Assembly: GCF_003334355.1 (NCBI RefSeq)
Contig: NZ_QOWP01000007.1
Direction: 5' to 3' (one strand)
Origin: Escherichia coli
Lineage (GTDB): Bacteria > Pseudomonadota > Gammaproteobacteria > Enterobacterales > Enterobacteriaceae
Length of the DNA stretch: 64,000 nucleotides
Position numbers and translations under genes: made by a program. The notes beneath the pieces were generated by a model that was not told where the DNA came from, searched no databases, and was given only the letters and a program-made list of their open reading frames with translations. Of the stretch, positions 1-402 are shown piece by piece. The first letter of the stretch is position 1. Each line of letters starts with the position of its first letter.

Positions 1-402
1 ATGCTTCCATCGGAAACGATGATCTGGCAGCCTGAGTTCACAGATAAAACACTCTCCAGGAAACCCGGGGCGGTTCACCCGAAAAGCTTCTTTAAATCTC
101 TGTCGCAAATCATCACGCCAGGCATCTTTATTCAGCCGTCCATATTTCTTTCCCATCCAGGCGTTATCACCAACACGCTCAAGATGCGGAGGGTCTAATA
201 CAACCATCGAAAAAGATGCGTCTGCAAATGATAATGCACGAAAATCTGCGATAATGTCAGGGCTGATAATCAAGCGTCTCCCATTGCGTAATGTGTATCC
301 TTCTTTTCTGATATCGCTGAATATCGCCCGTTTGTCAGACTTATCGAACCAGAACATGCGGCTGCCACAGCACATATCAAGAATGGTTGCCGGTGCACTC
401 AC
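1..402 (-). CDS. Prophage SAM-dependent amino-methyltransferase, N-terminal part only (gene continues past window start)
   Basis: Minus-strand translation from GTG 402 (or ATG 375): MSAPATILDMCCGSRMFWFDK (motif I-like) followed about 48 aa later by VVLDPPH (motif IV-like, DPPY-type). Open to position 1. Not in the ORF track because it is truncated by the window edge. Confidence 0.5.
   Translation of the reverse strand, partial: MSAPATILDMCCGSRMFWFDKSDKRAIFSDIRKEGYTLRNGRRLIISPDIIADFRALSFADASFSMVVLDPPHLERVGDNAWMGKKYGRLNKDAWRDDLRQRFKEAFRVNRPGFPGECFICELRLPDHRFRWKH

Follow-up and report, generated by a model that had tools for sequence, protein, structure and literature searches.

A small phage methyltransferase gene, probably already in decay when or before an IS629/IS1203 element cut it short, in a Qin-like prophage of Escherichia coli

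Introduction

Small methyltransferases with a DPPH motif are extremely common in temperate phages. They belong to the sequence family PHROG 954, which NCBI names class I SAM-dependent methyltransferase and which includes WP_001310834.1, Listeria phage A118 ORF50, Streptococcus phage T12_28, and Pectobacterium phage ZF40 gp20. These genes share the motif series LDxCCGS ... D ... DPPH and a place in the early operon after the replication genes, and they have no neighboring restriction gene. The names given to the family are inconsistent and include DNA methyltransferase, cytosine methyltransferase, class I SAM methyltransferase, TRM11 family, and UbiE. Thousands of annotations could be put right once the activity of a single intact member is assayed.

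A second point of comparison is M.NgoMXV of Neisseria gonorrhoeae MS11, an atypical gamma-class N4-cytosine methyltransferase, which has the gamma order of motifs (motif I before motif IV) in common with the small phage proteins. M.NgoMXV has an atypical DPPH motif IV, and gp20-gp21 of ZF40 and the protein A0A0R1K693 are reminiscent of its tandem arrangement with M.NgoMorf2P. A possible relationship is suggested by UniProt, where two family members bear the M.NgoMXV or N4-cytosine name, and by a statement in a review.

Two further systems bear on the locus. The Qin (Kim) prophage of E. coli K-12 has the DicA-DicC-DicF-DicB region, an exonuclease, an integrase, and a site beside the ynf genes in common with the prophage described here. 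K-12 Qin is not known to carry the O-like, DUF977, and methyltransferase genes, which are kept in the present prophage and in many other E. coli strains. The other system is IS629/IS1203 of the IS3 family, whose annotated elements are identical to the terminal 77 bp of our sequence.

The window analyzed here, a stretch of 64,000 nucleotides of E. coli DNA, begins with a minus-strand open reading frame of the PHROG 954 sequence family (E values of 7e-58 to 2e-87 for a sister allele and a full-length relative). A first-pass annotation had taken it for a prophage-encoded orphan methyltransferase gene running off the window start. Unlike the PHROG 954 phage genes, however, the window copy is ended by an IS element at residue 109 of about 160 and carries three substitutions in conserved columns, and unlike M.NgoMXV it is presumably inactive. 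We put at about 0.9 the probability that an IS629/IS1203 element has interrupted a small phage methyltransferase gene that was already decaying within a Qin-like cryptic prophage. The locus is a known one, with annotation across many E. coli genomes, and the remnant is an ordinary dead gene.

Results and discussion

The open frame at the window start is a chimera with an IS element end

Translation of the minus strand gave an open frame of 134 codons at window positions 1-402, with a GTG start at 400-402. Motif I (ILDMCCGS) occupies codons 7 to 14 (window 361-384, minus strand), and DPPH occupies codons 70 to 73 (window 184-195, minus strand); both motifs are thus present where the first-pass annotation saw them. 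The DNA from 76 to 1900 is 99.9% identical to E. coli loci annotated "SAM-dependent methyltransferase."

The gene does not, however, run off the window start. An IS3-family element of the IS629/IS1203 type has its right end at window 1-77 (plus strand), which aligns base for base with the IS right ends in two reference loci, L002 and L003. The L003 element is complete, 1,310 bp long (2768-4077), and flanked by a 3-bp target duplication (ACC), whereas only the right end lies within the window; the L002 element is annotated by RefSeq as "IS3-like element IS1203 family transposase." Both the terminal inverted repeat and the transposase 3' end expected of an IS629/IS1203-type element were found. 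The window contains a single copy of the terminal inverted repeat, TGAACCGCCCCGGG (64-77, minus strand), compared to 0 occurrences expected by chance. The last 11 transposase codons and their TGA stop (33-35) lie on the plus strand within 1-77, and the end of the transposase coding sequence in L003 matches window position 35.

Because window 1-77 is an IS629/IS1203-type end, the ORF owes its last 25 codons, NRPGFPGECFICELRLPDHRFRWKH, to chance read-through. Sequence derived from the methyltransferase gene stops at 78 or at 76, as the junction is ambiguous by 2 bases. Where the first-pass annotation expected the C terminus to continue outside the window, the sequence is that of the IS element, inserted after residue 109 of about 160. 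Without the IS, the frame would run on into LRPHGVLIFKWNE..., and with it, a stop would end the chimeric frame after 27 more codons, provided that the unseen portion of the IS is like the reference. Judging from relatives, the left flank would hold the remaining 1,233 bases of the IS, a 3-bp direct repeat (probably CCC), and the rest of the methyltransferase gene, with a presumed TAA at codon 119 and a frameshift in a run of A.

Database comparisons showed the same break. A megablast comparison of window 1-1900 with the complete E. coli genomes (5,426) gave matches by the hundred at 99.9% identity, all beginning at query base 76, and the few matches with 100% coverage were stitched from two to three pieces that included "IS3 family transposase." Matches in the phage collection likewise began at base 76. 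The two separate origins also show in an alignment in which window 1-77 pairs with the right end of an IS of strain CB6837 and 78-402 pairs with the uninterrupted methyltransferase locus. Each half of the junction is very common on its own in complete RefSeq E. coli genomes. The exact IS/methyltransferase junction (window 1-160), in contrast, was absent from all 5,426 of them, and a scan of species-representative genomes for it gave no match. Therefore, either the source strain is outside that set or the insertion is recent. As judged from these sequence comparisons, the insertion appears to be strain specific.

ORFs that run to the edge of a sequence can be chimeras with the ends of mobile elements, and therefore an open frame with good motifs is no evidence of an intact gene.

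The gene was probably decayed apart from the insertion

What remains at window 78-402 (minus strand) is the 5' two-thirds of a phage gene for a small class I SAM-dependent methyltransferase, a pseudogene fragment according to its translation and homology. It comprises codons 1 to 108 and a codon 109 that is completed by junction bases (window 76/78-402). Over residues 1 to 109, the protein is identical to that of a sister allele in an uninterrupted locus (L001), and 94 of the 109 residues are identical to those of a full-length relative, P0013 (162 aa). The residues for SAM binding and catalysis (D9, C12/G13, D30, R32, D53, and D70-P-P-H73) are all present; across an alignment of 66 family sequences, they vary little or not at all. 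Missing beyond the junction are the conserved positions L110, G114, K119, W120, P138, and K157. The coding sequence stops at residue 109 and so falls short of the complete core of about 155 aa, which includes strands beta5 to beta7. By its sequence, the feature is best regarded as a gene fragment and not as a PHROG 954 family member in the functional sense.

The fragment also carries three changes in columns that are 89 to 95% conserved. Two of them, P58S and G102R, introduce residues seen in none of the 66 aligned family sequences, and the third, F69L, introduces one seen in 2 of the 66.

Sister alleles showed further lesions. All four uninterrupted Qin-type alleles (L001 to L004) have TAA at codon 119, which encodes Lys in 98% of the family; their second lesion is a 1-nt frameshift near codon 146. 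Homology to the family continues after the TAA as WNETQIPVSQILALTDRKPVICQRTGK and, past the 1-nt frameshift, as KNDKTHWIIFMKE. For L001, the RefSeq record carries the remark "frameshifted; internal stop" and lists the copy as a pseudogene. The same two lesions (e.g., L004 3838-4327) are handled inconsistently by RefSeq, which lists an intact 118-aa protein, WP_001310834.1, in some genomes and a pseudogene in others. This 118-aa sister product, named "class I SAM-dependent methyltransferase," matches the PHROG 954 "DNA methyltransferase" profile with an E value of 6.7e-58. The match of so nearly identical an allele indicates that the family signal of the window ORF is far beyond chance. Together with the order of motif I and a DPPH motif IV, it bears out the SAM-dependent methyltransferase origin that had been proposed. 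Alleles cut to 118 aa are frequent in E. coli, with clusters of 385 and 128 members, which we attribute to clonal inheritance of the cryptic Qin prophage.

The lineage was thus inactivated before, or independently of, the IS insertion. The IS3-family element, of the 1,310-bp type (IS629/IS1203), has inserted after codon 109 and has taken away strands beta5 to beta7 of the Rossmann fold. An active enzyme from this locus is not credible because beta5 to beta7 are lost, the sister alleles carry lesions, and three substitutions fall in conserved columns. The window copy would thus yield no active enzyme and no methylated motif attributable to it, and we expect no methylation phenotype. The idea that this copy is a candidate functional orphan methyltransferase fails on the IS truncation and on the nonsense codon and frameshift of the sister alleles. 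The locus merits annotation as an IS-disrupted pseudogene, and there is no methylation motif or epigenetic effect to seek there.

Intact members form a large and compact phage family

The full-length relative P0013 matched PHROG 954 with an E value of 2e-87, the REBASE-derived PADLOC model MTase_II PDLC03288 with 1e-72, and the PADLOC orphan methyltransferase model (oMTase) PDLC03730 with 1e-48. A word-indexed search found 1,630 homologues. Exhaustive searching gave 2,038 representatives at the 50% identity level, and a profile search gave at least 8,000 candidates. Full-length members are 157 to 170 aa long and end in ...LRPHGVLIFKWNETQIPVSQILALTDEKPAIxQRTGKxDKTHWIIFVK. Longer homologues have heterogeneous N-terminal extensions with no conserved domain, and N- or C-terminal extensions are found in some members only. 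In the alignment of 66 sequences, the invariant residues are D9, D30, R32, P48, D70-P-P-H73, E105, R108, L110, W120, and P138.

The HMM search that the first-pass annotation had proposed gave a split outcome, in that the PHROG 954 and REBASE-derived PADLOC models matched but Pfam and NCBIfam returned no significant family. This was the case for the 118-aa allele, the remnant, and the 66-sequence alignment, with generic Methyltransf_11/25 hints only. Pfam PF01555 (N6_N4_Mtase) matched no member at an E value of ≤0.001 and 13 of the 66 only at ≤0.1; the family is outside PF01555, and its motif order (I before IV) is opposite to that of the beta-class N6/N4 DNA methylases. Sequence searches of the PDB with a single protein and with a profile found only generic class I methyltransferases, the best being PH0226 (6e-05).

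An AlphaFold (AF2) model of P0013 (pLDDT of 93.6) is a bare Rossmann core, with strands at residues 7-9, 26-30, 34-37, 43-46, 64-69, 110-121, 138-141, and 150-156 and with DPPH (70-73) directly after strand 64-69. The bare core of the model and the length of the full-length members (157 to 170 aa) show that a target recognition domain is absent. The best fold neighbors in the PDB are class I methyltransferases, including the nucleic-acid amino-methyltransferases Trm11, RsmC, and M.TaqI, and family members in AFDB50 superpose at a TM score of >0.9. The P0013 model (m7fb4912433cd) has further features: no helix occurs before residue 82, helices are found in the C-terminal half only, an extra beta-hairpin spans 34-46, and one face of the sheet looks uncovered. 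That face may possibly be an interface for a partner or an oligomer.

By tblastn, the protein was found in 254 phage records at 45 to 94% identity. The hosts include Streptococcus, Vibrio, Acinetobacter, Porphyromonas, Listeria, Gordonia, Lactobacillus, Enterococcus, Staphylococcus, and Salmonella, and Stx phages carry it too; identity is 45 to 65% across phages of Proteobacteria, Firmicutes, Actinobacteria, and Bacteroidetes. Replication and recombination genes surround the gene in ZF40, A118, and T12, and no endonuclease partner gene was found beside it in these three phages. In ZF40 (L007 3492-6118, gp20-gp21), it directly precedes the gene for a 717-aa DNA methyltransferase and extends into the start of that gene. 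In a Companilactobacillus protein (AFDB A0A0R1K693, 418 aa, "Cytosine-specific methyltransferase"), the small domain is contained within the longer chain.

Three other systems were set aside. The "N-6 adenine methylase" SpSL1_16 was rejected as a family member (BLASTP E value of 0.012, beta-class layout); no adenine methylation was found for it (PMC6755750). The M.EcoGII-type nonspecific adenine methyltransferase of Serratia phage OS31 is a different locus that adjoins lysis genes (PMC7556043). NgoAXV is an unrelated GGNNCC system.

What intact members may do

Our best guess is that the intact relatives are gamma-class DNA amino-methyltransferases without a target recognition domain. As in the gamma class, motif I is N-terminal to a motif IV of the form (D/N/S)PP(Y/F/W/H) that follows strand beta4, whereas the C-terminal target recognition domain typical of gamma-class enzymes, e.g., M.TaqI, was not found. 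The intact relatives would bind SAM through LDxCCGS, D30, and D53, and the invariant DPPH tetrapeptide would serve methylation of the exocyclic amino group of a flipped base. They would be coexpressed with the phage replication genes and would most likely modify phage DNA as orphan anti-restriction methyltransferases. We think it probable that an intact member acts as an orphan DNA amino-methyltransferase, and we favor m4C as its product.

An N4-cytosine product like that of M.NgoMXV may be proposed by analogy, from annotation and one review sentence. UniProt names a Xenorhabdus member "DNA N-4 cytosine methyltransferase M.NgoMXV" and an S. pneumoniae member "DNA N-4 cytosine methyltransferase," and the A118 record states that its protein "methylates cytosine residues in DNA." In the review sentence, "M.NgoMXV and its homologs" count among the rare m4C-forming enzymes of the gamma class (PMC3874165). 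Among the best 120 matches of the profile search, none had a Neisseria name.

Alternative readings of the window copy and of its family

That the ORF is an intact, functional orphan DNA methyltransferase gene whose C terminus lies beyond the window edge would fit a frame of 134 codons open to the edge and the intact SAM-binding and DPPH motifs. However, the last 77 nt are an IS3-family terminus unrelated to the C-terminal sequence of the family (LRPHGVLIFKWNETQ...), the invariant L110, W120, and P138 are missing, and sister alleles at the same locus are already pseudogenes, so that we regard an intact gene as extremely improbable. Nor do we see much prospect for an N-terminal fragment with IS-encoded residues that keeps some activity, whether SAM binding or a dominant-negative or regulatory role, even with motifs I to IV and a translationally coupled start retained and with truncated 118-aa alleles common in E. 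coli. A Rossmann sheet without three of its seven strands would not be expected to fold, the substitutions in conserved columns suggest relaxed selection, and clonal inheritance of Qin accounts for how abundant the 118-aa allele is; such residual activity is therefore very improbable. An IS-disrupted remnant of a gene already in decay remains the preferred account of the window copy.

A different question is whether the "DNA methyltransferase" labels of the family were simply propagated and its members act on RNA (rRNA or tRNA, making m2G or m6A), on small molecules, or on protein. The closest folds include Trm11, RsmC, TrmN, Bud23, and generic small-molecule methyltransferases at scores similar to that of M.TaqI; a weak profile match links the family to the RsmD-like HI0767 around DPPF/DPPH; a member appears in one NCBI record as a "TRM11 family methyltransferase"; the 160 aa hold no target recognition domain; and literature searches found no experimental paper on any member. 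On the other hand, no NCBIfam RNA-methyltransferase model, including those for RsmD, RsmC, Trm11, and TrmN, came near its cutoff, which also speaks against the rRNA methyltransferase fold left open at first pass. The gene has a consistent place among replication and recombination genes in phages of four phyla, it adjoins a large DNA methyltransferase gene in ZF40, and its domain is contained in the 418-aa "Cytosine-specific methyltransferase." Moreover, 13 of the 66 members have N6_N4_Mtase matches, weak ones, and matches to the REBASE-derived PADLOC models are strong. The N4-cytosine names, together with what that one review passage says of M.NgoMXV, also point to DNA (PMC3874165). We therefore consider RNA or another substrate unlikely for intact members. 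Somewhat less likely again is that the family is not a conventional sequence-specific DNA methyltransferase at all and either makes nonspecific or single-strand DNA m4C/m6A at the replication fork or has a substrate other than DNA. Even if the family proves to be unconventional in this way, the window copy would stay inactive.

The surrounding prophage is of the Qin type

The genes adjoining the remnant are those of a Qin-like prophage, in agreement with the earlier view that the ORF is prophage borne. Upstream of the remnant, the window holds the DUF977, O-like, YdaT-like, DicC, and DicA genes. The first of these encodes a DUF977/"LygF" family protein of 140 aa (399-821, minus strand), as seen in the ORF list and in the annotation of near-identical loci, and the replication-initiator (O-like) gene follows at 862-1881 (minus strand), annotated "phage replication protein O" or "DNA replication protein O" in such loci. 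The methyltransferase gene would have belonged to the early rightward operon, directly after these two genes. The TGA stop of the DUF977/"LygF" gene (399-401) and the GTG start of the methyltransferase gene (400-402) overlap as GTGA. Overlaps of this kind are typical of translational coupling and suggest coupling in the ancestral operon.

The immunity region of the Qin-like lambdoid prophage spans 1808-3029, as recognized from NCBIfam and annotation. It consists of a YdaT-family/cII-like gene (1808-2329, minus strand, from annotation), a DicC/Cro-like gene (2313-2573, minus strand; NCBIfam DicC, 3e-49, above cutoff), and a DicA/CI-like gene (2622-3029, plus strand; NCBIfam DicA, 2.7e-67, above cutoff). 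A full-length DicF small RNA lies at 4073-4124 on the plus strand (Rfam RF00039, 76.7 bits compared to a gathering score of 48), and homologues of ydfA-C are on the DicA strand, opposite to the methyltransferase remnant. DicA, DicC, and DicF mark the element as a cryptic, defective lambdoid prophage of the Qin/Kim type.

Further along the plus strand are an exonuclease gene (4769-7240), a small ORF (7313-7564), and a tyrosine integrase gene (7584-8879). The exonuclease has a partial NCBIfam exodeoxyribonuclease VIII match below the curated cutoff and relatives annotated "exonuclease," and the integrase has NCBIfam tyrosine recombinase matches below their cutoffs. The small ORF has no family match; its position between exonuclease and integrase suggests an excisionase. 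The exonuclease-integrase block (4769-8879) is the end of the prophage, with chromosomal genes beyond it. Long ORFs follow the integrase, including a pair of 808-aa ORFs that we take to be the chromosomal ynfE and ynfF.

The lack of an adjacent restriction gene, another feature noted at the outset, holds here and in every relative examined. No restriction endonuclease gene adjoins the methyltransferase gene on the window side or in the E. coli relatives, which leaves no type II restriction-modification pair, and downstream of the gene these relatives have decayed hypothetical genes and IS elements.

Two minor observations concern other parts of the window. Within the O-like gene, four to five iteron-like repeats with a 23-bp period (1368-1483, core CATTTTGAMC..GATG) are preceded by three tandem 12-bp units, TATTCTCTGTAG, at 1329-1364. 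From its sequence, the repeat region (1329-1483) resembles a lambdoid replication origin that lies inside the initiator gene. Far from the prophage, the longest ORF in window 49062-50432 (minus strand) is only 368 aa, and the flanking ORFs of 603 aa and 421 aa look full length. The interval is presumably where uidB (457 aa in K-12) is expected, with uidA (603 aa) and uidC (421 aa) as its flanks. The short ORF may be a start-codon artifact of the ORF listing or may reflect a 5' lesion.
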